Part shown: positions 3,882 through 63,221 of the stretch, in pieces
Layout: the number at the start of each line of letters is the position of its first letter
Numbering within the stretch: the first letter of the stretch is position 1
Assembly: GCA_951406725.2 (NCBI GenBank)
Contig: OX597822.1
Location: 49,414,001 to 49,478,000 of the forward strand
Direction of reading: 5' to 3'
DNA length: 64,000 nucleotides
Source of the DNA: Octopus vulgaris
Taxonomy: Eukaryota
Made by a program: the position numbers and the translations under genes
The notes under the pieces: model-generated
What the model saw: the letters and a program-made list of their open reading frames with translations, nothing else
What the model was told of the DNA's origin: nothing
The model's database searches: none

Positions 3882-4769
3882 CAATGTATGTGTACAAATA
3901 ATACGGAAAAATAGTTACCAGGTTAGCAAAAAAAAAGTATCAAGTATGTAACATCCTACCAATAAAGGTAGAAATTCCCGTGTTTAGTGAAATGTTTTTA
4001 ATTAACATAGATAAATAAAGAAATGGAGTTAAACGGAGTTGTTATTAAAATCTTTATTCTTCCGACATATATTTCGAAGAAAACATTGGCATTATTCCAG
4101 AGTGAATAAAATGATGTAAAGCAACGCAATTTTTACATCGGGGAAAAAAAGAGAAACAAAACACTAGCCATTTTAACCGAAAGTGATTACTGCATGATAA
4201 AAGGAACGCTGGTAAGTTATTGTTTTTTTTAAACCGTTAATAGATTTAACGTCATAGGTATTTTATAGAAAGAGAAACACATTTATCGGTCGTAAAGCGA
4301 TGTTGGGGACAAACAAACATACAAATACATGCATGCATACATACATACATACATACATACAGTCTACGGAACGTGCTCTGGCATGGGCGGTGTGGATAGT
4401 GGTGATGGGATATCCACGTAGGGCGAAGTGGCGAGCAATGAGTTGAGACTGAGTCTCAAAGTCATGGTCGTCACTGCAAAGCCTACGTAGACGAGGCAAT
4501 TGGGAATAGGGGACGGAAAGCTTGGTGTGTTTAGGGTGGGAGGAAGAGAAGTTGATGTATGAGTGTGAGTCTGTGTGTTTGTAGTGGATGGAGCTGGTGA
4601 GAGTGGAGTGATGAATGCTGACTGAAATGTCAAGAAATGAGACAAAGGTATCAGAGATAGTGCAAGGCAGGATGAAAAGATTTGATAAAAGAGAGGATGG
4701 AGTCTAGATGTTCGCGGGAGAGTGAGGTCACACCGATAGTCATCAATATAACGGGCATATAGTTCGGGA

Positions 4770-4818
<49 letters not shown>

Positions 4819-5314
4819 GTGAGTGTTCCACTCACGATCTAGCGATCGTGATTTCAAATCACGTGGTAGACATTTCCCTGTTCGGACTGCCTCAATTCGG
4901 TGGAGGGAGTGAGCTAAGGCGTGGCACGAACATTTGATCAATCTAAACAAATCATACATCCGCTTCGATGAGATAGTCCTTGATATATATATATATATAG
5001 AGAGAGGGAGATACTTAAACATATTGGATGTAAGTCTACGCCTTGTTTCATGCGTAGCTGGGCTGTACGTATGTATGTATGCATGCATGTATGTATTTAT
5101 ACACATTTATATATAAATACATACATGCATTAGCCACTACGCAATCTTTTTCTCTCCTTGTTTCTCTCCCTATTTTTTCTGTGTCCCTTTCTATAGAAGA
5201 GCGTAGGCTCGAAACGTAAAATACTTTTTCTATTCCTGAGCGTTATACTAATACATCTGTTTGTTTTGTACACCATCTGTCTTCGTCTTTTGTTTTTTTT
5301 CGTAAACGCTCCCT
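3621..5314 (-). mobile_element. Penelope-like element remnants: RT fragment between two inverted ~185-bp pLTR-like copies
   Basis: Minus-strand 4364-4770 encodes PELYARYIDD...FLDISV...TDSHSYINFSSSHP...SQLPRLRRLCSDD, a PLE RT/thumb region with frameshifts. 3621-3805 and 5131-5314 are inverted copies, each abutting a TA/CA microsatellite. Confidence 0.75.
5188..5221 (+). ncRNA. Minimal variant hammerhead-ribozyme-like motif (PLE pLTR)
   Basis: ttt-CTATAGA-A-GAGC gtag GCTC-GAAA-CG-TA-aaa. The inverted copy near 3715-3750 has core TTGTAGA. Both cores deviate from CUGANGA. Confidence 0.45.
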
Positions 5315-8946: not shown

Positions 8947-10110
8947 TGAGCTATGAATTAAGTCTACCCTGAAATGTAAATACGATCGGAATGAAACAAA
9001 TTTCACGTATATGGAAAAAGTTCCCGAAATTAACTTGATCCTGAGAGGGAAATAACTTTTGCCTTTCGATTATACAGTTACTTGACCAACAAAAAATGTT
9101 TCTATTTTCGCTTTTGTTAAACACAATATTTTAATAATTTAGAAATATTTTTAGGGGAATATGATTTCAAAAATGTAAGTTGTTTGTATAATAAGTATTT
9201 ATATTTTAGCTTTAAACAGACAATATTTTAATGGTTTAAAAAATTCTTTTTGGCATAAATATTTCGTAGAAGACCCGTTTGTAACCTCAGTGTAAAATAA
9301 TTTTTTCCATAGGCTTTTTTCGAGTGCATTCAACGTATCTCACTTCTAAAGATTTGGCTGCTATTTCTAACACGCCCTGATACCACGTAACTGCTTTTTG
9401 CGATAAATGACCTGAAATACTTGTTATATGGTAGCAGGGTGTGCAAAATATAATAGCCAAATCTTTCCTTTTCTGGAGAAAGGAGCTGCTTACGCCTGAT
9501 TTCAATGTCACATTCGTTAAAAAACCCCACGAAACAAAACTCCGTTGCTGGGAAACTCAGACTTTCCCGGTGGCCCAATGGATCATGGGTAGTCTAGTGT
9601 AGTATATAAATGTATATAAGTAATGTTTATCGCCACATCAACATGGCGGTTCGACGTTACTACCGTTTTTAACGCCAGGAAGAGCCTCTAGTATAAATTG
9701 CAAGCAGGGAAGCGAACTCTACCATCTTGTAGCTGTCGGGCTATTTGTGCCCATCATCAGTGGTGAACACCCGGCCGCCAGAGATAACAGGAATTCACTC
9801 CAGCTCACAATATATAGAAAATCAAGTGACAATCAGTCACTGACCTTGCCTAACCAGCTACTTTTCCTGTTGATTTGTTGACCTTACAAAAGCTTTCGAA
9901 TTTCTGAGTATAATCTGAAATTTTTCACGATCGTTCATGCATTTGACACAGATGTGAAAAGTCTCATTCAGTGCGATGGCTCTTCCTCAGAAACTGTCAG
10001 CATTCTTATTGAAGTGAAGAGGATTCTCTGATTTTTTCCGAACTTGTTCAGCATTTTCTTCGAGGTTATGTTGAAGCAGGTTCTTAGAAATGTCAACCGA
10101 TGGTACTTAC

Positions 10111-10339
10111 GGCGAGCTGGCAGAAACGTTAGTACGCCGGGCGAAATGCTAAGCGGTATTTCGTCCGCCGCTACGTTCTGAGTTCAAATTCCGCCGAGAT
10201 CGACTTTGCCTTTCATCCTTTCTGGGTCGATACATTAAGTACCATTTACGCACTGGGGTCGATATAATCGACTTAATCCGTTTGTCTGTCCTTGTTTGTC
10301 CTCTCTGTGTTTAGCCCCTTGTGGGTAGTAAAAGAAATA
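10111..10339 (+). mobile_element. SINE-B, full-length monomer with Tx1-type tail and 9-bp TSD
   Basis: Head with A box (TGGCAGAAACG) and B box (GAGTTCAAATTCC); core GCCTTTCATCCTTT..GGGTCGATA..TTAAGTACC resembling the MetaSINE-type domain; tail ends GAAATA. TSD GGTACTTAC at 10102-10110 and 10340-10348. Confidence 0.9.
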
Positions 10340-10819
10340 GGTACTTACAAGATCAGATGGGAAACTGCTCTCAATTGATTGTTAAAATGAAAATATGCAA
10401 GTACTCAGCAAAAGTTGTTTCTAGATGATGCAACACGGGCAACATACTCGGTGGAACAATTGTAACTTATCTTGGACAGCTTTAAAGAGCCTTCTCAAGA
10501 CGTTGATTTTAACATCAGCTTCAAGAATACGAAAGTACTAGGAAAACTTATTGCGTATTGTCCTACCATTACCATCGACAACTACTGCAATCTGGAAGTA
10601 ATCCATGAATTCTCATACCTCAGCACCACCATCATAGACATCTATAGAGTGTGAGATCAAATGACATACTAAAGGGCTCTTCAGATATAGCCAGATGAAC
10701 GTCTAAGAGAGTATAAAATAACAAATGTAGTATGAAGTGCTTGCGTCCTCAGCACATGCTTTACGGTCGTGATCTACAAAGTTTCGACATCAAACATGAA
10801 CAGCATCTCAACGCCTTCC

Positions 10820-11078
10820 ACCACAAGGGGTTAAATACAGAGAGGACAGACAAGGACAGACAAACGGATTAAGTCGATTATATCGACCCCGGTGCGTAAC
10901 TGGTACTTAATTTATCGACCCCGAAAGGTTGAAAGGCAAAGTCGACCTCGGCAGAATTTGAACTCAGAACGTAGCGGCGGACGAAATACCGCTTAGCATT
11001 TCGCCCGGCGTGCTAACGTTTCTGCCAGCTCGCCGTAAGTACCATCGGTTAACATTCCTAAGAACCTGCTTCAACATA
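10820..11078 (-). repeat. Inverted duplicate of SINE-B plus ~43 bp of its upstream flank
   Basis: Reverse complement of 10068-10324, including non-SINE flank ATGTTGAAGCAGGTTCTTAG..ACCGATGGTACTTAC. Confidence 0.9.
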
Positions 11079-18637: not shown

Positions 18638-18742
18638 CAAGATGTAACCACATATGAACACAAGCACAAAATATATGTATATATATCTCTTCAATTGTGC
18701 ACATTCAAAGAATAAAATTCATTTTCAGCATTAAATAATATT

Positions 18743-19328
18743 TATTTCTTTATTGCTCTCAGTGGGGCTAAACATAGAGGGAACAAACAAGGACAGACAA
18801 AGGGATTAAGTCGATTATATTCATCCCAGTGCGTGACTGGTACTTATTTATCGAACTCGAAATCATGAAAGGCCAAGTCTACGGAATTTGAACTCAGAAC
18901 GTAGCGGCAGACGAAATACCTATTTCTTTACTACCCACAAGGGGATAAACACAGAGAGGACAAACAATGACAGACAAACAGATTAAGTCGATTATATCGA
19001 AACCAGTGTGTAACTAGTACGTATTTAATCGACCCCGGAAGGATGAAAGGCAAAGTCGACCTCGGCGGAATTTGATCTCAGAACGTAGCGGCAGATGAAA
19101 AACCTATTTCTATACTACCCACAAGGGGCTAAACACAGAGAGGACAAACGGACTAAGTCGAGTATATCGACCCCAGTGCATAACTGGTACTTATTTAATC
19201 GACCCCGAAAGGATGAAAGGCAAAGTCGACCTCGACGGAATTTGAACTCAGAACGTAGCGACAGATGAAATACGGCTACGCATTTCGCCCGGCGTGCTAA
19301 CGTTTCTGCCAGCCCACCGCCTTACCAG
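18743..19328 (-). mobile_element. SINE-B head-to-tail trimer (single head) with 11-bp TSD
   Basis: Tail ends at 18743, 18921 and 19105. Internal junctions read GAAATA|GGTATTTC and GAAATA|GGTTTTTC. TSD TAAATAATATT at 18732-18742 and 19329-19339. Confidence 0.9.
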
Positions 19329-19413
19329 TAAATAATATTAAATGTGTTCTTATTTATTATATCTCTTTATTATTATAAGATGGGAGTACTGAAGGGGGAG
19401 AAAAACGAAAAGG

Positions 19414-22639: not shown

Positions 22640-23274
22640 AGGGGCTAAACACAGAGGACAAACAAGGACAGACAAACGGATTAAGTCGATTATATCGACC
22701 CCAGTGCGTAACTGGTACTTAATTTATCGATCACGAAAGGATGAAAGGCAAAGTCGACCTCGGCAGAATTTGAACTCACAACGTAGCGGCAGACGAAATA
22801 CCGCTAAGCACTTCGCCCGGCATTCTAACGATTCTGCCAGCTCGCCACCTTCAAAATATATTTCTTTACTGCCAACACGGGGCTAAACATAGAGGGAACA
22901 AACAATGACAGACTAAGAGATTAAGTCGATTACATCGACCCCAGTGTGAAACTGTTACTTTATTTATCGACCCCGAAAGGATGAAAGGTAAAGTCGACCT
23001 CGGCAGAATTTGAATTTAGAACGTAACGGTAGACGAAATACCTATTTCTTTATTACCCACAAGGGGCTAAACACAGAGGGGACAAACAAGGACAGACATA
23101 GGTATTAAGTCGATTACATCGACCCCAGTTCGTAACTGGTACTTAATTTATCGACCCCGAAAGGATGAAAGGCAAAGTCGACCTCGGCGGAATTTGAACT
23201 CACAACGTAACGCAGACGAAATACCGCTAAGCATTTCGCCCGGCGTGCTAACGTTTCTGCCAGCTCGCCGCCTT
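22640..23274 (-). mobile_element. SINE-B monomer (22640-22850) plus head-to-tail dimer (22859-23274)
   Basis: Tail ends at 22859 and 23043, 184 bp apart. The internal junction is GAAATA|GGTATTTCG. Confidence 0.9.
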
Positions 23275-23942
23275 AAATGAGGAGTATATTGACGTAGGTT
23301 AATGTGGGGCTGAGGTTTTAGTACGTGTAATCGTATTGTGTACGTGAGAAAAGTGTGGGAGTGAGGAGTTGGGAGCACACGCACACACAGACTCTCTCTC
23401 ATGTACACACATGCACATACCCACACACACACACACTTTCACAGACATGCACAAACGCACACACGCACACACACACACATACACATAGACACATACAGAC
23501 CCCCTACACATACACATGCGATTCAGTTCCGCAGTTTTCGCCTATAAATTTTCATTTAGAGAGTACGTGATTTTAGCAGAAAAAGCTGAAGACATAGTGT
23601 AGTACAAATGAACTCGAATTTATGTGGTTGCAAAGCAAAGTATAGGATGTTGTGACAAAGGTAGCGCCTACTCTACTATTCGAAATAATCACTGTTGACA
23701 TAGAAACACACTCAGAAAGGATGAAAACGAAATCGAATGAACACTTTGCTGAAGGAAACGAAAACCATCATTGTCAATTTAGAAATAAAAGTTACAACTC
23801 TTGATTTCGCAACAAATATTTTGGGCATATGATTATGAAACCATCCTACTTTTCTGTACTTAGTCATGCCTACTCTGATATTTACACACACACACACACA
23901 CACAAAATACGTACATATAGTATACATAAACATATGTACATT

Positions 23943-25240: not shown

Positions 25241-26242
25241 TGTGTGTGTGTGTACGTGTGGGTGAGTGGGGGTGGAAATACGTTCAAAGGAGACCAATTC
25301 AAACTTTTTGAGAGGTCCAAAAAGAGAGAAAGAATGATTTCTAATAAAGATTCATCATATTCATAAAAAAACAGCCAGAGCAAGTAATAAGTATATAAAA
25401 ATAGTAGTTGAAAAATATCGCTATAGGTATAAAAATGCCATAAACGATTATAGGAAAATGAAGGAGAAAAAGAAGTAGAATGAAAATTAGATTTAATACA
25501 AAATAGGATTCAATACATAAGCGCGTTTCAAAGGACAATACAAATATGTAAGAAAAAAATAATAATCATTGTAATTATAATTGAATTTATGCATTGTCAT
25601 TTACATGAGTGTGAGGAATTTTTGTAAGGTCATCAAAAAAGTTTAATAAAGTAAAGTAAATTAAATAAGATACAAATGAGGTAATAGGGAAAAAATCGGA
25701 TATTTATAAGCAAGTTGTAAAAGGAAAAAATAACAGTAGTAACAATAGTAAGAGAGAGGAAACAGAAAAAAAAAAGACATATCAATGTGTATGCACGTCT
25801 ATAAGTGCGGAAAACTATAACATTAAGAATAAAAATCTAACGGATATATTTATAAAAATGGTAACAGGTCGAGACATAGTATAATAAACAGGGCCATGTG
25901 TGTATAGTAGAATATAACGTAACAGGTGGACTAGTAGAAAAGAATCATAGAGAGTTAGATATTTACATATTAATATTATTGAAAAATGAAAAAAATATAT
26001 ATATTTTACACGAGGCTAAAAGTTGATAGGCAAGACTATGTTTGAAAAAAGTTACCATATTTAAGTAAAAATCTACATACATGCTGAGAAAAAAAAACCC
26101 AAAGCGAACTTAAGGAAAAATACGTCGATTGTGAGAGTTCATGTATGTATCTATAAACAAGCATGAAATCTAATTGTATTTGCTGGTTCAAATCTCGACA
26201 TGCACTGCAAGAAAGAGCAATGCTACCATGACTACTTCAATA

Positions 26243-26832
26243 ATCCTTTCTACTATAGGCACAAGGCCTGGATTTTTGTGGGGAGGGGGGACAATCGATT
26301 ACATCGACCCCAGTAATTGACTGGTACTTAATTTATCGACCCCCGAAAGGATGAAAGGCAAAGTCGAACTTGGCGGAATTTGAATTCAGAACGTAACGAC
26401 AGACAAAATACCTATTTCTTTACTACCCACAAGGAGCTAAACACAGAGAGGACAAACAAGGACAGCCAAACGGATTAAGTCGATTACATCGACCCCAGTG
26501 CATAACTGGTACTTAATTTATCGACCCCGAAAGGATGAAAGGCAAAGTCGACCTTGGCGGAATTTGAATTCAGAACGTAACGACAGACGAAATACCTATT
26601 TCTTTACTACCCACAAGGGGCTAAACACAGAGAGGACAAACAAGGACAGACAAACGGATTAAGTCGATTATATTGGCCCCAGTGCATAACTGGTACTTAA
26701 TTTATCGACCCCGAAAGTATGAAAGGCAAAGTCGACCTTTGCGGAATTTGAACTCAGAACGTAACGGCAGACAAAATACCGCTAAGAATTTCGGCCGGCG
26801 TGCTAACGTTTCTGCCAGCTCGCCGCCTTACC
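26243..26832 (-). mobile_element. SINE-B trimer: two Tx1-tailed units nested in a SINE-B with a different tail; 12-bp TSD
   Basis: Tx1-type tails end at 26413 and 26597 (184-bp period). The 3'-most unit ends CAGGCCTTGTGCCTATAGTAGAAAGG. TSD ACTACTTCAATA at 26231-26242 and 26833-26844. Confidence 0.9.
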
Positions 26833-26854
26833 ACTACTTCAATATTGATCATCC

Positions 26855-27750
<896 letters not shown>

Positions 27751-41000: not shown

Positions 41001-41758
41001 CTAGCAGTATCGCCCGGCGTTGCTCAGGTTTGTAAGGGAAATAACTATAAAGCATTTTTAGAGAGTTATAGCCAAAAAATAGAAAAAAAATGATGGTAAA
41101 TTTTTTTGAGAGTTAAAACAGGTGGAGTTGCGTCCCCTAGACGGTCTGTGGTTTGGGTTTCTCATTCTCGACCCCATGTCGAATTTATCGTTTTTTTTCA
41201 GAACTGGGGGAACTTTTCAAATTTTTCGCTGCGTTAGTTTTGAATTATGACATTGGGCTATGTGTGTGTTAAGTTTCATCAGAATCGGTTGAAAGCCGTG
41301 GTCAGAGTGAGGGTACGAGAAAACAGACACACAGAAACACGCACAGACAAACTGCCGTTTATATAGAGAGAGATAGCAGTATCGCCCGGCGTTGCTCAGG
41401 TTTGTAAGGGAAATAACTATAAAGCATTTTTAGAGAGTTATAGCCAAAAAATAGCAAAAAAATGGAAAAAAAATGATGGTAAATTTTTTTTGAGAGTTAA
41501 AACAGGTGGAGTTGCGTCCCCTAGACGATCTGTGGTTTGGGTTTCTCATTCTCGACCCCATGTCGAATTTATCGATTTTTTTTCAGAACTGGGGGAACTT
41601 TTCAAAATTTTCGCTGCGTTAGTTTTGAATTATGACATTGGGCTATGTGTGTGTCAAGTTTCATCAGAATCGGTTGAAAGCCGTGGTCAGAGTGAGGGTA
41701 CGAGAAAACAGACACACAGAAACACGCACAGACAAACTGCCGTTTATATAGAGAGAGA
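41001..41758 (-). mobile_element. Non-autonomous Helitron, head-to-tail dimer
   Basis: Near-identical units 41001-41373 and 41374-41758. The minus strand begins TCTCTCTCTATATAAACGGC and ends GAGCAACGCCGGGCGATACTGCTAG. It sits between A and T in a TA tract. Confidence 0.85.
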
Positions 41759-41919
41759 TATATATATATATCTTTAAAAATGTATAGAGGTAGAATGTTA
41801 ATTTTATTAATAGCTCTTTTCTATCTACATATTCCATTTTAGTAATATTTTTGATAAGTTGTCTCAAAAACCGAAACATGTAGAACAGAACCAAAATATT
41901 CTTCTTTTAACGTATACTA

Positions 41920-42110
41920 TTTTACTTGTTTCAGTCACTTGACTGCGGCCATGCAGGAGCACCACCCTTAGTCGAGCAAATCGACCTCAGGACTTATTCT
42001 TTGTAAGCCTAGTACTTATTCTATCGATCCCTTTCGCCGAACCGCTAATTGCGGGGACGTAAACTTACCAGCATCGGTTGTCAAGCGATGTTGGGGGGGG
42101 GGGGGTACAA
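41920..42110 (-). mobile_element. SINE-A 3' half
   Basis: CTTGTTTCAGTCACTTGACTGCGGCCATGCAGGAGCACC tail. Confidence 0.8.
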
Positions 42111-46992: not shown

Positions 46993-47395
46993 AGGCGTAG
47001 TAAGTAGCTTGCTTATCAACCACATGGTCCTGGGTTCAGTCCCACTGCGTGGCACCTTGGGAAAGTGTCCTACTATAGCCTCGGGCCGACCAAAGCCTTG
47101 TGAGTGGATTTGGTAGACGGAAACTGAAAGAAGCCCGTCGTATATATGTATATATATATACATGTGTGTGTGTGTGTGTGTGTGTAGGTGTGTGTGTGTA
47201 TTTGTGTGTCTGTGCCCCCAACATCGATTGATAATTGATTCTGCTGTGTTTACGTCCCCGTGACCTAGCGGATCGGCAAAAGAGACCGATAGAATAAGTA
47301 CTAGGCTTACAAAGGGGTCGATTTGCTCGACTAAGGGCGGTGCTCCAGGATGGCCGCAGTCAAATGACTGAAACAAGTAAAAGAGTAAAAGAGTA
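46993..47395 (+). mobile_element. SINE-A (head partly deleted)
   Basis: High similarity to 53360-53752; tail ends AAGTAAAAGAGTAAAAGAGTA. Confidence 0.85.
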
Positions 47396-47826: not shown

Positions 47827-47902
47827 GCGCAGGAGTGGCTGTATAGGCGCAGGAGTGGCTGTATAGGCGCAGGGGTGGCTGTATAGGCGCAGGAGTGGCT
47901 GT
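47827..47902 (+). repeat. 20-bp tandem repeat of the SINE-A 5' end
   Basis: (GCGCAGGAGTGGCTGTATAG)x3 runs directly into the SINE-A head. Confidence 0.95.
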
Positions 47903-48312
47903 GTGGTAAGTAGCTTGCTAACCTCACTGACAGAAGAGTGACTTTGCCTACCGTACTACGGTTTGGACGCGTTTTCTTCCCGGTAAGAGTTTTGCTGTGT
48001 TGTTAATTGTTGAATTCCTACTACTGAAAATTTGCCTTTAAACGTTGCTGAACTGTCTTGTTCTCCGGTTTTACCGGGAAATAATTGAATAATTTCTTAC
48101 CGTTGAACTGTTAGCCACTGTGGCTTTTTATTTACGTGACTATATATAGTCCCGCCAGACTATTTTCGTGCCCCTCCCCCGAATGGGGGTGGGAATTGGA
48201 ATTTTTGAACTGCTTTTTTGAACTACTTTGGAAGAAAAACTTTCTATAGGTTTCCCAGTTTTGTGGGAAACCAATATTCGTAATTTTTGTGTTGTCTAAT
48301 TTCAACAGAATA

Positions 48313-49713
48313 ATGTCTGTTGAAATTATTCACGAAAGTAGTGCTCTTGAGGAGAGCAATGTTAAAAAATTTTCTGAGGTAGCCGCAGTGGCTACCGAGA
48401 AGATTGACATCGATGTCAACCAGCTCGTCGAGCTATTTAAAAGAATGCAAGAGGAGGGTGGTGATGTTAAAATATCACCCTCCGCCAGTATCGTGGAGAC
48501 CGAGAAGCGGACCGTAGTGTTTAAAACTTTCTGTCCACAAAGCAGAAGGTTCAAACACTTTGAAAAAAGCACCATCGAGAAATGCCTGTCCCCGATTTGG
48601 AAGGACATCGTGTACGTCGCCAGGGGACGGGCATATGGCACTGTGGATGTCCGCTTCTCGGGGAAGAAATGGCCCGCGGGCATTCTGTGAACCCCCTAAA
48701 AACCAAGGAGGTGGTACTTTTTCCAAGCTATAGGGGACGCAGGTCGTCCCGGGTCAGGATTGTAGAAGCCCCGCCGGACGTAGATCCGGTAGAGGTAGTG
48801 GCCGCCCTGTTATATAAAAGGGCGGACAAAATAAAAATACTAGAAGTAACATGCTCTACCCCTCGATTTTGGCTCGGGCGTAACATTAATATATTAATTC
48901 AAGGAACAGCGGAGGACCTGCAGCTCCTTCCTGAGAGGGTGCTCGTGGGCGAGAACGTAGCCCTCAGGGTACAGGTCGAAGGCCGAAAACCCACCTGTTA
49001 CGCCTGCAACAAAAAGGGCCACATTCGTGTAGACTGTCCAGACAAGCAAAAGAAACCGCAGACACCAGGCCCCTCAGATAATAAAAAAGTCCCTACCCTT
49101 GCAAACACACCTACCCCTACAAAAACAAAAAATCCCACTCCTGCTGTTACGGTGCCAACCCCAAAACAGACTGAAGAAAAAACCCAGCCCTCGCACTCAC
49201 AAACCCCTACACTATTAAAACCTCCCACCCCCTAAAAACTGCGGCGCCTACCGAACAAACTATTGCTACCACAGACGATACCATGGAGGTATCAGAGGGG
49301 GATTTACACCAGTTCGTAAAAGAATTCGTGCAGCATCCCCGTCCACATCCCCTACAAAAAATAATAAAAACAAAGACACACCACAGACACGGAAAAAAAA
49401 ATCCCGCTCAACTGGCCCAGAAAAAGAAGACAAAAAAGAAAATGAACTCATATTAATTGAATTCGACACACAAGACAAATACATAAACGATATTGTGGTT
49501 CAGCATCAGTCAGCAAGACTGTACAACAAATACAAAGATCGAAATAGACACGCGTGGATTGCGGAAACAACGTTCAAACAATTAAAAGACAGACACCCAA
49601 ACGCCATCCGGCATATCGCGAACTTGCCGGACTATCTGAAGAAAGAGGAGAAAGAAGGGGCCCACAAACGTGTGGTGAGGTCGGCCCCCACCTCTCCAAC
49701 GAAATGTAAGTAG
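48313..49713 (+). pseudogene. Tx1 ORF1 (gag-like zinc knuckle), split by three apparent 1-bp deletions
   Basis: CX2CX4HX4C motif CYACNKKGHIRVDC and a P/T/K-rich linker. Frames connect by -1 shifts plausibly at G4 (48660), C5 (49228) and G5 (49297). Restored length ~467 aa. Confidence 0.8.
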
Positions 49714-49729
49714 AACCTTTACTTTTGTA

Positions 49730-52700
49730 ATGGCTTCGCTTAACCTTGGTTGTTTAAATGTGCGTGGTCTGAGTTCGAAGTGGAAGCAGGCTTGTTTCCT
49801 CGACGACCTCAGATCACATGATATACATGTGATGGTTGCTACAGAGACCAAGCTGGACAGCCTACAAACCTTCTCGCCTCTCCTGAATGGCTACGAGAAA
49901 ATCATGTCTCCTGGCCAGACCGGAGGGCGAGGGGGCGTAGTGGTACTGATCCGTAAAGACTTGGCTCTACAGACAAGTACAGTCTATGTAGACCCAGAAG
50001 GTGGGCTGGTCGTCCTTGATGTGACATACAGCAGTAAGGCCTTCAGGTTAATCGGACTCTATGCACCTTGTGCTAGAGGTTTCCAAACTGATTTTTATCG
50101 GCGCCTAGAGGGCTTTCTCGTGACGTCGAAGACTTTAGTGATATTAGGGGACTTTAATGCTATCGTTGACGTACACATCGATAGCGTTGGCTCGATCTAT
50201 AGGAAAGTGAACTCACGTCTCGTGGATCTGCTTAAGCGGTTTCAGCTAGCAGATCGTTACAGACTTGACCATCCGAACGTCCCAGAGTGGACCTGGATGA
50301 GTGGCGACGGAAGGTTCAAGTCTTATCTAGACAGGATAGTGATAAGAACTAGAGATAAGTCTAGTTTTAGTTGTCCACAGCTCGTCCAGGTGCCCTATAC
50401 TGACCATAGAATGGTCACGTGTAGACTGGACATAGATAGCACACTTAAGATAGGAACCGGCTACTGGAAGCTGAACAAGTCTATTTTGACACGCGAGGCA
50501 TACCGTAGCCGGATTAAGGTGTTAGTGCAGAGGGCGTTAACCGGAGCCGTGGTTAATAACCGGTGGTGGTTCACCCTCAAAAGAGCCATTCGATTCGAGT
50601 CCATTAGATTTAGTAAACAACTAAGACTAGATAGGGCTAGAATAGAAGGGCAACTAGTTAAGAACTTAGAGGAGGCGTTGAGGTTGGGCTCTGCATCTCA
50701 CATTTTAGCGGCGAGAACGGCATTAGACCGTCACCTCAAAACCAAACATGAGGGATGTAGAGTCCGGGCTAAAGTACGAGCATTGGGCCGTGAGGGAATT
50801 AATGTTGCCGGATGGGCCCGTACGATAGAAACACAGCGTGGAAACGATGCCACAATTGGGTCTCTTGTTGATGAAAATGGATGCACGATCAAGAAGCGGG
50901 ACGAGATGTGTGAGGCACTCCACAAGCACTTCGCCGAGTTGTTCGGGAGGTGCGGGACGCTGGATCATGGTGAGGCCCTTAGGGACTTCCTGTCTGGTGG
51001 CCCGCGCCTCTCGACACGAGAGGCTGAGTGCTGTGAAGGGCCAATCACAGCCGAGGAAGTAATCGAGGTGTTGGGCAAGTGCCCCGGGGAGAAGTCGCCG
51101 GGTCTCGATGGTCTGCCCTATGAATTTTATAGAAGTATGCCAAACTTGTTCGGGCACCTGCTGGCTAGCGTCTACGCCAACTGGCAGCAGAATGGGAGAA
51201 TTCCCAAGTCTGCGAGCCGGGAGGCGGTGACCTTGATCAGGAAGGACCCGAACAAGGGGGACGAGATAGGGAACTTCAGGCCCATAACTCTGTTAAACAC
51301 AGAGTTAAAGATTCTGGCCAAGGTGCTAGCAAAAAGGTTGGCGCGGGTCGTGGACAAACTTGTCGGGGAAGCGCAAACGTGCGCTATCCCCGGCAGAACG
51401 ATCCACGACAATCTCCACCTTATACGCTACTCCTTAGAGAGGGTGGGGAAGCTTTCTGGCGCAGGGGGAGCACTGGTACATTTAGACCAGTCCAAAGCAT
51501 TTGATAGGGTCGACCATCGGTACCTGGCGGCGGTCCTCGGAGAGGCTGGCCTAGGCCCGACCTTTCGAGGTTGGATCGCTGCTTTGTATAGCGACATCGA
51601 GTCTGTAGTCAAGGTGAACGGTTCCTTTTCGAAGCCGTTCAGGATCGAGCGTTCAGTTCGTCAAGGGTGTCCCCTGTCCTCGCTCCTATACGTATTGGCT
51701 CTTGAGCCTTTGCTGCGGAAGTTGGAGGCACTAGGGGGCGCGCCGCATGATCTATGGTGTGGAAGAGGAGCTACGGCGTATGCGGATGACACCTCCATCA
51801 TCGTGGCAGACGAAGGCCAGCTTCCAGTGGTGGAAGAGGCCATAAAAAGCTACGAGGCGGTGGCAGGAGCAAAGGTTAACAAGGACAAGTCGGTCGGTTT
51901 GCAACTCGGCACCTGGAGGGGCAAGCCGATGCCGTCCAATAACGTCGTAGGGCGTTGGACGGAAGGTCCTGTTAAGCTGCTCGGAGTCTGGTTCGGGCCA
52001 GACCTCCAGATTGAGAAAAATTGGAGTGAGGTGGCCAACAAGGTGACCGCTCTAACCCAGACCTGGTCTGGGCGGGCGTTATCCCTGCTAGGGAAGGCGG
52101 AGGTGGTGCAGATGTTTATAGCATCAGTAATCACCTACCGTCTGACCGTGGTGCCTTGCCCCGATTTGTGGCTGAACAAGTTGGAGAGAATCCTTTTCCG
52201 ATTTTTGTGGAAAGGAGGAAAGCCACTTGTAAAGCGCTCTGTCTGCTGCCAGAAACCGCTAAAGGGTGGGCTAGGGATGCCTTGGCTGAGGATGCGAAAA
52301 CTCGCGTTAAGGTTGAGGCACCTCTGGCTTTACCTGGATGGAGAGCAGGTGTGGTCGCCGCACGTCCGGTTCTACCTTCCCCAGTTAACATCCCTAACGG
52401 ACATCGGTGCATGGATCAAGCGGAGACCTAAACTGAGCGAATGGCATTTGGAGTGCCGTCAGGCGCTCCAGCTACTATCTCGGGTGGGCAACGCCGGCAA
52501 CAGGAGTTCCACCACGGATTTCTATAGCGGGTTAGTGGAGATTAAGTCCGAAGACGCCTTGGGGGAGACCCTGGGCTACGATGAAAATCAGTTGATCAAC
52601 CTGTTCCGGAGGACGTTCGGGCCGGGGTATCTGGATAATTACCAGAAATCCCTAGCCTGGCAGTGTTTCCGTGCGGCTTTACCTGTTCGCGACAAGCTGT

Positions 52701-53131
52701 CAAGGCACGGTAGTGCCGTCTCGCCGACATGCCCGCGATGTGAGCAGGATAGGGAGACCGTCTTGCACGCATTCGTGGAGTGTCCGGAGTTATCGGGACT
52801 GATAGCTTTTGTAGAACAACTGTTGTCAGTGATGGGAAGAGTACAGCTATCAGCTGAGTCTATCATCGAGATTGTGCCGCCCCCTTTCCTTAACAGGGAA
52901 AGAAAGGCTTGTTTTTTCTGTGTAGTAGCCATACTGAAAGAAACAGTATGGAAGACGCGTACGAAAGGTATAGTGACAGGCACCTTTGTCTCCGGCCAGG
53001 GGTTGATTAACTTTTTTAGTTACCACCTCAGTAGCAAAATCAGGCTGGAGAAGAGGTGTCTGTCACGAGATATGTTTGTGAAAAGATGGAAGCCTGTGGC
53101 ATACAAGATGGGTATGTTTGGCACCAGGTAA
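49730..53131 (+). CDS. ORF2: APE endonuclease, reverse transcriptase and C-terminal zinc finger (1133 aa)
   Basis: APE motifs LNVRGL, ETK, YAP, GDFN, LDR, TDH; linker YWKLN; RT motifs KSPGLDG, RPITLLN, LDQSKAFDRV, VRQGCPLS, YADD; zinc finger CPRC..ETVLHAFVEC. Uninterrupted. Confidence 0.97.
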   Translation: MASLNLGCLNVRGLSSKWKQACFLDDLRSHDIHVMVATETKLDSLQTFSPLLNGYEKIMSPGQTGGRGGVVVLIRKDLALQTSTVYVDPEGGLVVLDVTYSSKAFRLIGLYAPCARGFQTDFYRRLEGFLVTSKTLVILGDFNAIVDVHIDSVGSIYRKVNSRLVDLLKRFQLADRYRLDHPNVPEWTWMSGDGRFKSYLDRIVIRTRDKSSFSCPQLVQVPYTDHRMVTCRLDIDSTLKIGTGYWKLNKSILTREAYRSRIKVLVQRALTGAVVNNRWWFTLKRAIRFESIRFSKQLRLDRARIEGQLVKNLEEALRLGSASHILAARTALDRHLKTKHEGCRVRAKVRALGREGINVAGWARTIETQRGNDATIGSLVDENGCTIKKRDEMCEALHKHFAELFGRCGTLDHGEALRDFLSGGPRLSTREAECCEGPITAEEVIEVLGKCPGEKSPGLDGLPYEFYRSMPNLFGHLLASVYANWQQNGRIPKSASREAVTLIRKDPNKGDEIGNFRPITLLNTELKILAKVLAKRLARVVDKLVGEAQTCAIPGRTIHDNLHLIRYSLERVGKLSGAGGALVHLDQSKAFDRVDHRYLAAVLGEAGLGPTFRGWIAALYSDIESVVKVNGSFSKPFRIERSVRQGCPLSSLLYVLALEPLLRKLEALGGAPHDLWCGRGATAYADDTSIIVADEGQLPVVEEAIKSYEAVAGAKVNKDKSVGLQLGTWRGKPMPSNNVVGRWTEGPVKLLGVWFGPDLQIEKNWSEVANKVTALTQTWSGRALSLLGKAEVVQMFIASVITYRLTVVPCPDLWLNKLERILFRFLWKGGKPLVKRSVCCQKPLKGGLGMPWLRMRKLALRLRHLWLYLDGEQVWSPHVRFYLPQLTSLTDIGAWIKRRPKLSEWHLECRQALQLLSRVGNAGNRSSTTDFYSGLVEIKSEDALGETLGYDENQLINLFRRTFGPGYLDNYQKSLAWQCFRAALPVRDKLSRHGSAVSPTCPRCEQDRETVLHAFVECPELSGLIAFVEQLLSVMGRVQLSAESIIEIVPPPFLNRERKACFFCVVAILKETVWKTRTKGIVTGTFVSGQGLINFFSYHLSSKIRLEKRCLSRDMFVKRWKPVAYKMGMFGTR

Positions 53132-55100
53132 GTGTGACCGGATCAGAAAGTAAAGGTTCTACCCGGATGGCTGGGTGTCCGTCCTTCGACATGATCATTA
53201 ATATTTTTAAACATTGCCTTCGTAAAATTCATTGTTTATAATCTTATCCGTAATTTCATTCGAAAATTGTAACTGTGTTAAGCTACTTCACCCTTTATAT
53301 TTGTCTGTCCTTGTTTGTCCCCTCTTTGTAAATGCCTAAATGGCAAATTATATGAAATAAAGTAGCTTGCTAACCAACCACATGGTTCCGGGTTCAGTCC
53401 CACTGCGTGGCATCTTGGGCAAGTGTCTTCTGCTATAGCCCCGGGTCGACCAATGCCTTGTGAGTGGATTTGGTAGACGGAAACTGAAAGAAGCCTGTCG
53501 TATATATGTATATATATATAAGTGTGTGTGTATATGTTTGTGTGTCTGTGTTTGTCCCCCTAGCATTGCTTGGCAACCGATGCTGGTGTGTTTATGTCCC
53601 CGTAACTTAGTGGTTCGGCAAAAGAGACCGATAGAATAAGTACTGGGCTTACAAAGAATAAGTCCCGGGGTCGATTTGCTCGACTAAAGGCGGTGCTCCA
53701 GCATGGCCGCAGTCAAATGACTGAAACAAGTAAAAGAGTAAAGAGTAAGAGTATTCGATTCGTTCACCCATATGAATTATGTCTCTTAACGCATTTTAAA
53801 TTATTTCTTCAGATATAAATTATACTGGCCAGATATTATTCCTAACTTTTTCTCTCTATATAAAAATGTTTGTGACTTGATGAAGCAAGCTCCAGTTGAC
53901 TATTTTCTGCTGATGAGGCTTAATATAGGTTTTCTATTGCTTACAAAGATGAGCGTTTTATCTCTCTAAAGATTAAATACGATAGATTAATTCTTAAGTT
54001 CTTGAAAATGTTCCACCTTTTCTTTGCGAGTCGGGGTGGGGGGGTTCTGTGTATTCTTGCCAAATCAAAGCGAAATTTCAGTGTTTGAGTATGTCATTCA
54101 GTATATTACATTTTAAACATTTATATTAAATTACACATCTTCCCCCTTTTTTTTCTCCTCCTACAGCAACAATAGCAACTGTTGCTGCTGCTGCTGTAGC
54201 TTCTCCTCCTTCTCCTCCTCCTCCTCCTCCTCCTCCTCCTCCTCCTACTACTACTACTACTACTACTACTAGATAATATTCTCTTAGATACGCTATGTTA
54301 AAAAGCCTGTAATGCGCTGTTGGAACATTCTTGATGGGGGTCCTGTTAAATAAGATTTGAACAGGGGTTAAATAAGTCTTTACTCCCTCTGCCTCACATT
54401 CTCTATCGTTTGTCCCTTCATTCCCCCATTTCCCTATCCCTCTTTCCATTTTATCTCCTCTTCCTTTCCCTATTCACTCCAGTATATTCATTTTATCGCT
54501 CTGTTCTTTTCGCCCCTCCTTCTCTTTCCTTCCTTCCTCATCTACGCATTTCCCTGCCTCCTTGTCCCTTTCTATGTCACACAGAAACATGCATATAACT
54601 TAAACATATTCATTATTACTCTGCAATTTTTACATGTATATAATGAAAGTTTTTTAAAATCTAAATTAAACGGAGATGAAAAGTAATTTCGACATACGTG
54701 CTAAAACAAAGATAATACATCTTTACACACATGCTTTTTTTTCTTTTGGTTACACTTATGTAAACGTTCTAAATTATCGATCTTCTCTCTGTCCCACTTT
54801 TCTCCTCTCCTATCCTAAAATCTCGTCTATTTTATAGCAGAAAACTACTCATGCAGTTTCTTTTAATTCTTTTCATATGATCATTGTATAGCTTTTGCGT
54901 GATCGATACAGCGAGAAACAAGCTTTGAAATTGCTAGGACACATTTTTCATTAGTAAGCATAATTAGTCAGGCTTTAATTTTCTCATTTAAAAGAGAATG
55001 AAAAAATCTAATAAAACTAATAAAATGATCAATTTACACCATCAGTCAGTTAAAAGAAGTACCATAAAATGAAGATCTAACTGTAATTAGCTAATTTTAC

Positions 55101-55148
<48 letters not shown>

Positions 55149-55150
55149 CA

Positions 55151-55195
<45 letters not shown>

Positions 55196-55223
55196 GTTAT
55201 TATTGTTATTATTATTATTATTG

Positions 55224-55420
55224 AGTCGACGAACTGGCATAACCGTTAGCACGCCGGGTAAAATGTTAAGTTGCATTTCATGTATCTTTACGTTCTGAGA
55301 TCAAATTCTGCTGAGATTAACTTTTCTTATCGTCGTCGATCGAATAAATACCAGTTGAGTTCTGGGGTCAATGTAATCGACTTATCCCCTTCCCCAACAT
55401 TCCTGACCTTATTATCACTA
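55224..55420 (+). mobile_element. Diverged SINE-B following (TTA)n (55100-55222)
   Basis: GAACTGGCATAACCGTTAGCACGCCGGG...GTTCTGAGATCAAATTC. Confidence 0.7.
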
Positions 55421-61960: not shown

Positions 61961-63221
61961 CAGGGGTTGGATAAAATAATGGAAACACCTAGCATCATAA
62001 CATCATAATTTTGATATATCTATAAAACTGTCAAAAGCTCGTTTATTTTCCTGTTTTTTAAAATTTATTATTAGTGTTGCTTCATACGTTTTGCTAAAAT
62101 TGCTACTCCTTTTCAGATATCATCAGAAAAAAGGTAATTAAAATTCATTAATATGACAGATCTATCGGATTTTCAAAGAGGACAAATTGTTGGTGCTCGT
62201 ATGGCAGGCGCTAGTGTAACGAAAGCAGCCGAAATATTTGGTGTATCAAGAAATACTGTCTCGAAAGTAATGACAGCTTTGGGAAGGAAGGAAAAAAATC
62301 CTCGTTGAAACAAAACTCCGGAAGAAAGCCAAAACTTTCAGATAGGGGCCGGCAGGTGCTTACGCGAATTGTTAGAAAGGATCACAAAATTACAGCTCCC
62401 AAAATTACCGCAGAAGTTCATGACCTCCTCGAGAACCGGGTTTCCACAAAAAACTGTTCGCCGGGAGCTGCACAAAGCCGGATTTGACGGGAGGGATGCA
62501 ATCAGAAAACCACAAATTTCAAAAACAAACGTTTCTAAGCATTTAGAGTGGAGTAAAAACAAACAGAATTGGTCCCTAGAGCGGTGGAAGGATATTATTT
62601 TCTCGGACGAGTCATCATTCACCTTATTTCCGACAACCGGCCGAGTATACGTATGGAGACAGCCAAAAGAAGCATTTGATCCAGACTGACTTCTTCCGAC
62701 TGTTAAAAATGGAGGAGAATCTTTGATGATCTTGGGGTTTATATCTTAGAAATTCGCCGCCCCAATGGTTTCCCTTCATGGCAGAATTAATAGTCAAGAC
62801 TAGTTAAGCAGTTTTTCTAAGGGAATTCATCCTATGTTTGCAGAACTGTTTCCGGAGGGAAACGCAATCTTTCAGGATGATAATGCCCCAATTCACACAG
62901 CTAAATTTGTTACTGAATGGAACGAGGAACATTCTAGTGAAGTTGAACATCTTATCTGGCCACCACAGTCCCTCGATATCAATATTATTGAAAATTTATG
63001 GTGCCTTTTAGAAAAACAAGTAAGGTGTCGATATCCTCCACCATCATCACTACAAGAGCTGGAGACCTTTTTAGCTAAAGAATGGACAAAAATTCCTTTG
63101 GACACAATTCAAACTTTGTACGAGTCTATAGTTCGTAGAATTCAAGCTGTAATTACTGCCAAAAGTGGTCCTACTCCATATTAAAATAAATTTGTGTTTC
63201 CATTGTTTTGTCCAGCCCCTA
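61961..63221 (+). mobile_element. Full-length Tc1-like DNA transposon (DD36E) with 28-bp TIRs and TA TSD
   Basis: TIR CAGGGGTTGGATAAAATAATGGAAACAC at 61961-61988 and its inverse at 63194-63221. TA on both sides. Confidence 0.92.
62153..63184 (+). pseudogene. Tc1 transposase pseudogene
   Basis: MTDLSDFQRGQIVG...SGRKPKL...IFSDES...FQDDNAPIH...WPPQSLDINIIENLW. Contains frameshifts and stops. Confidence 0.9.

Follow-up and report, generated by a model that had tools for sequence, protein, structure and literature searches.

The array under study lies on the minus strand of a 64-kb stretch of Octopus vulgaris DNA (hereafter the window) and spans positions 26832-26243. It consists of one SINE head followed by three units that start with GGTATTT (starts at 26780, 26596, and 26412). 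Units 1 and 2 have 3' ends reading ...AGTAAAGAAATA, with GGTATTT directly after, and unit 3 ends in ...CCAGGCCTTGTGCCTATAGTAGAAAGG plus AT; these ends are referred to as tail 1 and tail 2, respectively. The TSD, TATTGAAGTAGT, is a 12-bp direct repeat at 26844-26833 and 26242-26231 that adjoins both ends of the array. Exact sharing of at least 12 bases was seen in 12 of 158,754 random pairs of non-low-complexity 20-mers from the window. Of the aligned tail columns, 23 distinguish tail 2 from units 1 and 2, compared with two that separate units 1 and 2 from each other, and tail 2 is therefore neither a decayed nor a truncated tail 1. No ORF of at least 120 aa overlapping the array was found. A sequence-only reading of this DNA had described two units with a Tx1-type tail and a differently tailed 3'-most unit under a single 12-bp TSD, which the coordinates, tails, and TSD bear out. 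It had also argued that tandem duplication of one monomer cannot give such an array, and this held as well, with two different tails lying within one TSD. An assembly chimera of units from different loci is hardly credible: short similar repeats are generally prone to mis-joins, but the exact TSD adjoins both array ends, the units differ from one another at 7-13 of 119 body columns, and the same architecture occurs twice more in the window (Table 1).

Table 1. Features of the focal array and of related elements, in positions of the window.
Feature	Position	Strand	Remarks
Solo tail-1 copy outside any SINE	10102..10348 (copy 10110-10339)	+	9-bp TSD GGTACTTAC
Second trimer	18732..19339	-	11-bp TSD; same junction register; 3'-most unit is an older tail-1 variant
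Dimer	22859..23275	-	same junction register; 3'-most unit is an older tail-1 variant; TSD searched, none found
3' TSD copy of focal array	26231..26242	-	12 bp
Unit 3 (host)	26243..26412	-	headless body and tail 2
Tail 2 of unit 3	about 26294-26243	-	terminal ATT-like bases run into TSD
Unit 2	26413..26596	-	headless body and tail 1, 184 bp; mosaic of alleles
Tail-1 block homologous to LINE 3' UTR, unit 2	26441-26470	-	30 bp
Unit 1	26597..26780	-	headless body starting GGTATTT and tail 1, 184 bp
Tail-1 block homologous to LINE 3' UTR, unit 1	26625..26654	-	30 bp
B-box-like motif of unit 1	26744-26753	-	likeness to Pol III consensus
SINE head	26781..26832	-	52 bp, A-box-like stretch; single, only at 5' end of array
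5' TSD copy, whole focal array	26833..26844	-	12 bp, identical to 26231-26242
Three decayed tail-2 copies	26855..27530	-	head-to-tail chain directly upstream of focal array
16-bp TSD of LINE	47908-47923, 53360-53375		inside head of second SINE family, just after A-box-like stretch
Full-length L1/Tx1-type LINE	47924..53359	+	5.4 kb; ORFs, Pfam domains, 3' end related to tail 1

With one head, head-truncated repeats, and a single outer TSD, the focal array fits the form TSD-(SINE)n-TSD. Its units do not all duplicate parts of one monomer, as at least two different monomers contributed. Simple tandem duplication of a single monomer was ruled out as its origin, since the two tails are not related to each other; unequal exchange acting on a dimer, by contrast, can yield the trimer.

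The surrounding window is AT-rich and dense in microsatellites. Besides the elements in Table 1, it holds a frameshifted Tc1/mariner-type transposase (62138-63184; Pfam HTH_Tnp_Tc3_2 and DDE_3) and a tandem repeat with two copies of 385 bp that are 95% identical (41002-41760). A short frame (4263-4831, minus) looks by eye like the end of a Penelope-like reverse transcriptase, and a Pfam search of this frame gave no match.

Copies of the SINE, which the sequence-only reading had labelled SINE-B, were collected by a profile search of the 64-kb window, and all conclusions refer to this one window with its three arrays and one informative solo site. Among the 24 matches, 22 represent this SINE family and two a segment in common with a second SINE family. 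The 3' part of the second family (41972-42031 and 47286-47330) weakly matches the last 45-50 body bases of the first (E 4e-4 to 8e-4). Tail 1 is carried by ten units (two of them truncated, including a duplicate) and tail 2 by six (one assigned by eye). The repeat has the features of a SINE: it is short, dispersed, and non-coding (24 profile matches, no ORF of at least 120 aa), three of five loci examined have TSDs (12, 11, and 9 bp), and tail 1 resembles a LINE 3' end (28 of 30 bases; 0 of 3000 shuffles). A B-box-like motif, searched with the Pol III consensus, occurs ten times in the window versus 0.5 expected, and all ten occurrences lie inside copies of this family. The A-box-like stretch in the head was read by eye from the Pol III consensus; ARAGORN and Rfam runs on the head returned no tRNA and no match to another RNA family. 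We propose a tRNA-type SINE family with two interchangeable tails. The body presumably resembles the Nin/Deu domain, and membership in a named family is at most a lead; octopus SINEs of the tRNA-Deu/Nin type (OR1, OR2, and OK) were reportedly described by Ohshima and Okada in 1994.

Comparing the divergence of the subfamilies, as the sequence-only reading had suggested, we found within the window that the tail-2 copies are the more decayed group, with a mean pairwise identity of 0.68 versus 0.91 for tail-1 copies (five copies each). In the tail-2 chain upstream of the focal array, one pair is held apart by a run of 43 ATT copies, and two tail-2 copies start straight after long ATT runs (chain and ATT-associated copies lie at 26855-27530, minus, and 55097-55400), hinting that the partner of tail 2 may insert at ATT-rich tails or microsatellites. 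Another tail-2 copy (1720-1852, minus) has an internal body deletion between two similar short motifs, and its tail is closest to that of unit 3. On the tail-1 side, the copies at 10067-10339 (plus) and 10821-11078 (minus) are inverted relative to each other and have the same private alleles and the same 43 bp at their 5' flanks, which suggests either a local inverted duplication or a 5' transduction. The tail-1 copy at 10821-11035 is cut off in its tail and duplicates the solo copy at 10 kb, and was thus not counted as a target site.

The ORF1 of the full-length LINE is frameshifted and spread over three frames, and contains a CCHC knuckle. Its ORF2 is open (1150 aa) and comprises Pfam domains Exo_endo_phos (AP endonuclease), RVT_1 (reverse transcriptase, RT), and zf-RVT, i.e., the L1-like order of AP endonuclease, RT, and C-terminal zinc motif found in the Tx1 clade. 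The best solved relative of ORF2 is L1 ORF2p (E 2e-66 versus 1e-19 for R2), and the best named homologue among the matches listed is from Argonauta hians (63% identity), with a cuttlefish protein at 51%. None of the 240 matches listed was named Tx1, and no clade name emerged from the protein atlas or the cluster tables. The excerpted text of PMC13282606 has L1-Tx1 as the sole L1-group class in its table of recent insertions in O. vulgaris, and tRNA-Deu and L1-Tx1 both appear as large classes in this species in the excerpts of PMC13282606 and PMC8967140. The LINE likely belongs to Tx1, which fits its domain order and the class table.

Tail 1 and the 3' end of the LINE match at 28 of 30 bases (53300-53329). 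The block lies about 60 bases from the end in both elements, and both terminate in GAAATA. Aligned with the last 100 bases of the LINE, tail 1 scored 50, which none of 3000 shuffles reached (best 43), and tail 2 scored 17, which 248 of 3000 shuffles reached and which thus amounts to no match. The match is confined to the 30-base block, the last 30 bases aligning poorly, and for this reason the LINE is best taken, from its sequence, as a sister of the true tail-1 partner, i.e., a relative and not provably the partner itself. The shortness of the match counts against the targeted insertion favoured below, and so do the LINE's own target, AAGTAGCTT, which differs from the GGTATTT junction, and the composition of the common block, which is T/G-rich and has a weak likeness to the second SINE family too (53533-53559). 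A fold with a 4-bp stem and a 5-base loop occupies corresponding positions of the LINE and of three of six tail-1 copies; these 3' hairpins were not more stable than shuffles (z -1.84 to 0.97 for seven tail-1/LINE folds) and were not used as evidence. AAGTA follows the GAAATA end of the LINE. Its TSD repeats an allele that is absent from the four other copies of the second family's head that were compared. That the LINE lies inside the head of a SINE and is flanked by a 16-bp TSD (one of one copy) suggests that it may target SINE or tRNA-like heads, a single copy being unable to show specificity. The first 20 bases of the SINE head that hosts the LINE are repeated in tandem 3.8 times upstream of it (47827-47902).

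For tail 2, identification of the matching LINE, as envisaged in the sequence-only reading, gave no candidate in the window. Outside the big LINE, the window has 217 complex stop-to-stop frames of at least 55 aa; 150 of these were scanned with Pfam and yielded no RT or endonuclease, the other 67 mostly overlapping SINEs, microsatellites, or the Tc1 element. A tail-2 profile search of the window recovered just the five source copies and one weak match (E 0.31). LINE groups that have ATT-repeat ends, namely RTE, CR1, L2, and Dong/R4, would be candidates for the partner. An exchange of tails on a common head and body is evident, as had been claimed; the accompanying claim that the SINE switched its LINE partner is not supported, as both tails may have been active together. 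Leaving subfamily alleles aside, unit 3 shows no clear excess of decay over units 1 and 2, and the search for a tail-2 LINE was negative. An age gradient along the arrays is present at the subfamily level, and absent or weak in the private changes of the focal array and the 18.7-kb trimer.

All five internal junctions in the three arrays of the window join tail 1 to the same head position. The prediction that non-Tx1 tails are never internal agreed with the window (0 of 5 internal junctions; hypergeometric P 0.03-0.06, with junctions that are not independent). The junction pattern occurs six times versus 0.04 expected, the sixth occurrence being the solo copy, and five of the 24 profile matches begin at the junction head position, every one directly after a tail 1. 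The hosts of the 18.7-kb trimer and the dimer carry an older tail-1 variant with common changes at columns 147, 149, and 154. The view that Tx1-tailed units invade other-tailed relatives thus applies to the focal host with its tail 2, but not to the other two arrays; the target is the head site in any relative, regardless of tail. As hosts differ between arrays (tail 2 once, older tail 1 twice), the register originated on more than one occasion.

Recombination could pass on a fixed register, which makes the solo copy the key evidence for targeting. Its 9-bp TSD begins with GGTACTT, one mismatch from the junction motif, and sites within one mismatch make up 263 of 119,804 non-SINE sites (0.22%). 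Among complete tail-1 ends, six of eight are followed by the motif with at most one mismatch. The two exceptions are of the older variant: next to these two hosts lies AT-rich sequence and not GGTA, which counts against targeting, as do the number of independent non-SINE target sites, namely the solo copy at 10 kb alone, and the lack of a TSD at the dimer. Derived alleles in the first nine bases are common to array mates more often than expected (2 versus 0.31, P=0.024), as copying of a 9-bp TSD predicts; both are CpG changes, one in units 1 and 3 of the focal array and one in units 1 and 2 of the 18.7-kb trimer. The former is a C>T at column 8 (26773 and 26405, minus) that creates a run of four T and is expected of a copied TSD. 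In unit 1, the four-T run separates the two promoter boxes and would be likely to terminate Pol III transcription, which makes the focal array an unlikely source element. On balance, we lean slightly towards insertion that is directed by sequence to SINE heads, with a 5' join that is seamless and primed by homology.

Independent insertion alone is insufficient, given that array mates share alleles beyond the TSD and that a column-42 CpG change is present in all three focal units. With the 11-kb duplicate copy left out, 13 common alleles beyond the TSD were observed versus 5.0 expected (P=0.002), and the column-42 change, found in none of eight other units, would have a probability of about 0.007 if independent. 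Unit 2 matches unit 3 at columns 14, 17, 28, 42, and 111, and unit 1 at columns 17, 42, and 96 and in the tail; its unit-3-like alleles lie in the 5' part and its unit-1-like alleles in the 3' part. As some of these alleles also segregate in other copies, they may be subfamily haplotypes. Both the allele sharing and the mosaic unit 2 are what would follow from rare founding and subsequent spread at the DNA level, in which the junction had one or a few origins, unequal exchange or ectopic gene conversion from existing arrays into monomers adds units, and the register is inherited without targeting. Unequal recombination has been proposed for SINE arrays of bivalves and reptiles in the excerpts of PMC11481361 and PMC10702118. 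Such spread leaves unexplained the TSD motif of the solo copy (0.22% of sites) and the position of the LINE in a SINE head, and in the 18.7-kb trimer 12 of 119 body columns and a 14-bp deletion distinguish unit 1 from unit 2; as a replacement for targeted insertion, we consider it unlikely. Local exchange probably acts on top of insertion, and the explanations weighed here are not mutually exclusive. Comparing two insertions with one insertion plus local exchange gave a rough likelihood ratio of 1.5 to 84 favouring local copying, a range that varies with linkage and in which several terms are assumed. With respect to invasion of the focal host, at least one insertion into a tail-2 host is retained, whereas a second is not required: a single insertion combined with local exchange accounts for the trimer no less well than two, and the middle unit may have been copied locally.

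Spread of the arrays could also have started from composite masters, i.e., dimers or trimers whose one head would drive transcription of the entire array and which would be retrotransposed as one unit by the partner of their last tail. In that case, the focal TSD would date from the insertion of the composite. That one TSD brackets the whole array in two of three arrays and that the focal units are of similar age agrees with such masters, and dimeric SINEs are known (PMC10702118, in part). They would account for spread but not for origin: last units and allele sets differ in all three arrays, so that at least two or three foundings at the same base are still needed, and we therefore rate composite masters as improbable. 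A single event of template jumping would likewise give one head, one TSD, and age-matched units, if RT copied an RNA with its 5' end at GGTATTT and jumped to the 3' end of the next SINE RNA until a full-length RNA supplied the head; such jumping is described for R2 in the excerpted PMC2718515. It predicts solo copies starting at the junction base, but none of the 24 profile matches does so without a preceding tail 1, which argues against both pre-cut RNAs and template jumping. Furthermore, the enzyme of the tail-2 partner would have to jump onto tail 1, and the solo TSD is left unexplained. Template jumping is accordingly very improbable.

Returning to targeted insertion, we infer from the anatomy, TSDs, fixed register, tail homology, and solo-site motif a course of events in which the identity of the tail-1-mobilising LINE, the source of specificity, and the annealing step are suppositions. 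The tail-1 SINE would bear the 3' end of an L1/Tx1-type LINE and be copied by the proteins of that LINE. A Tx1-type ORF2 protein would nick DNA with a preference for sites that read about GGTA(T/C)TT just 3' of the nick. As such a motif begins at base 53 of the SINE's own head, relatives with either tail would be targets. After target-primed reverse transcription, the cDNA would be homologous to the upstream head and staggered end of the host, anneal there in register, and prime second-strand synthesis without adding a second head. The predicted product is head + [body + tail 1]n + host body + host tail within the original TSD of the host, and each insertion would regenerate the target for further rounds. 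At the focal locus, a tail-2 host would have taken up at least one tail-1 insertion, and the extra unit may stem from a second insertion with local conversion or, slightly favoured, from unequal exchange in a dimer. Specificity may lie in the endonuclease or, equally, in base pairing between read-through RNA and the primer strand.

The components of this scheme are known from other animals, and what follows refers to the excerpts of the papers cited. Target preference is described for the Tx1 clade, and Tx1-Mar mobilises SINEU in crocodilians (PMC4494074). As proposed here, SINEU adopts the preference of a Tx1-clade LINE for another repeat, and its tandem copies arise by sequential insertion, with a TSD between copies (PMC4494074). 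However, SINEU has snRNA heads, poly(A) tails, and a Mariner transposon as target, whereas the octopus SINE has a LINE-derived tail, its own head as target, and headless inserted units; for SINEU-1, the excerpt reports that no LINE with the same 3' end was found (PMC4494074). In 28S rDNA, R2 forms precise 5' junctions by annealing of cDNA to the homologous upstream target (PMC3774820), and R1 forms tandem arrays by re-insertion into the regenerated TSD, with pairing of read-through 3' sequence (PMC2718515). R1 and R2 thus resemble the octopus case in site-specific insertion, tandem arrays, precise 5' junctions, and 3' read-through pairing, but they are autonomous, target rRNA genes, and derive their homology from co-transcribed target, while in octopus the element and its target belong to the same family (PMC2718515, PMC3774820).

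Arrays of the form TSD1-(SINE)n-TSD1 in blood clam are alike in having one complete head, repeated units with a truncated head, a last unit that ends differently, and a single outer TSD (PMC11481361). Their inner units carry the same tail in truncated form, and recombination was proposed, whereas the inner units in octopus have a complete, unrelated, LINE-derived tail (PMC11481361). Squamate SINE-derived satellites also consist of tandem units (130-215 bp) that represent a portion of a SINE, and their ends retain original SINE sequence; they differ in that duplication is invoked, neither tail heterogeneity nor LINE targeting is described in the excerpt, and arrays can be far longer (PMC10702118). 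Tail exchange is common in mollusc SINEs (PMC4758252), and mollusc superfamilies combine one head and body with tails of different LINEs, but the partners named in the excerpts are CR1, CR1-Zenon, L2, and Nimb (PMC11481361, PMC4758252); the term Tx1 has no occurrence in PMC11481361. Our literature search, with Repbase and Dfam entries and subscription papers outside its range, returned no report of an octopus SINE with a Tx1 tail or self-targeting, and the arrangement is not described in the accessible parts of PMC13282606, PMC8967140, PMC5804259, and PMC10886601. The self-aiming combination thus seems to be new to the literature.

Taken further, the observations can be joined in a tentative and rather doubtful reading, in which a cephalopod lineage of Tx1-type LINEs would have specialised on SINE heads as safe-harbour targets, with one LINE family per SINE family. 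One SINE family would have captured such a tail and become self-homing, inserting seamlessly behind the promoter head of its relatives, taking over that head, and regenerating the target in each round, so that older subfamilies would be converted genome-wide to the new partner.

No host function is evident, and the interest of the finding lies mainly with transposon specialists. If true, it would join in one picture three subjects that are mostly considered separately, namely the target specificity of Tx1, the exchange of tails among SINEs, and the origin of SINE tandem arrays. Seamless insertion would place the body and tail of the invader behind the Pol III head of the host and would thereby offer a route to tail exchange, and the nesting would give a polarised record for dating subfamilies. 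According to PMC13282606, SINEs account for 11.6% of the O. vulgaris genome, and 893 of its 900 SINE families with recent activity have no classification. A subfamily that targets itself would thus influence how repeats cluster in this genome and confuse their annotation.
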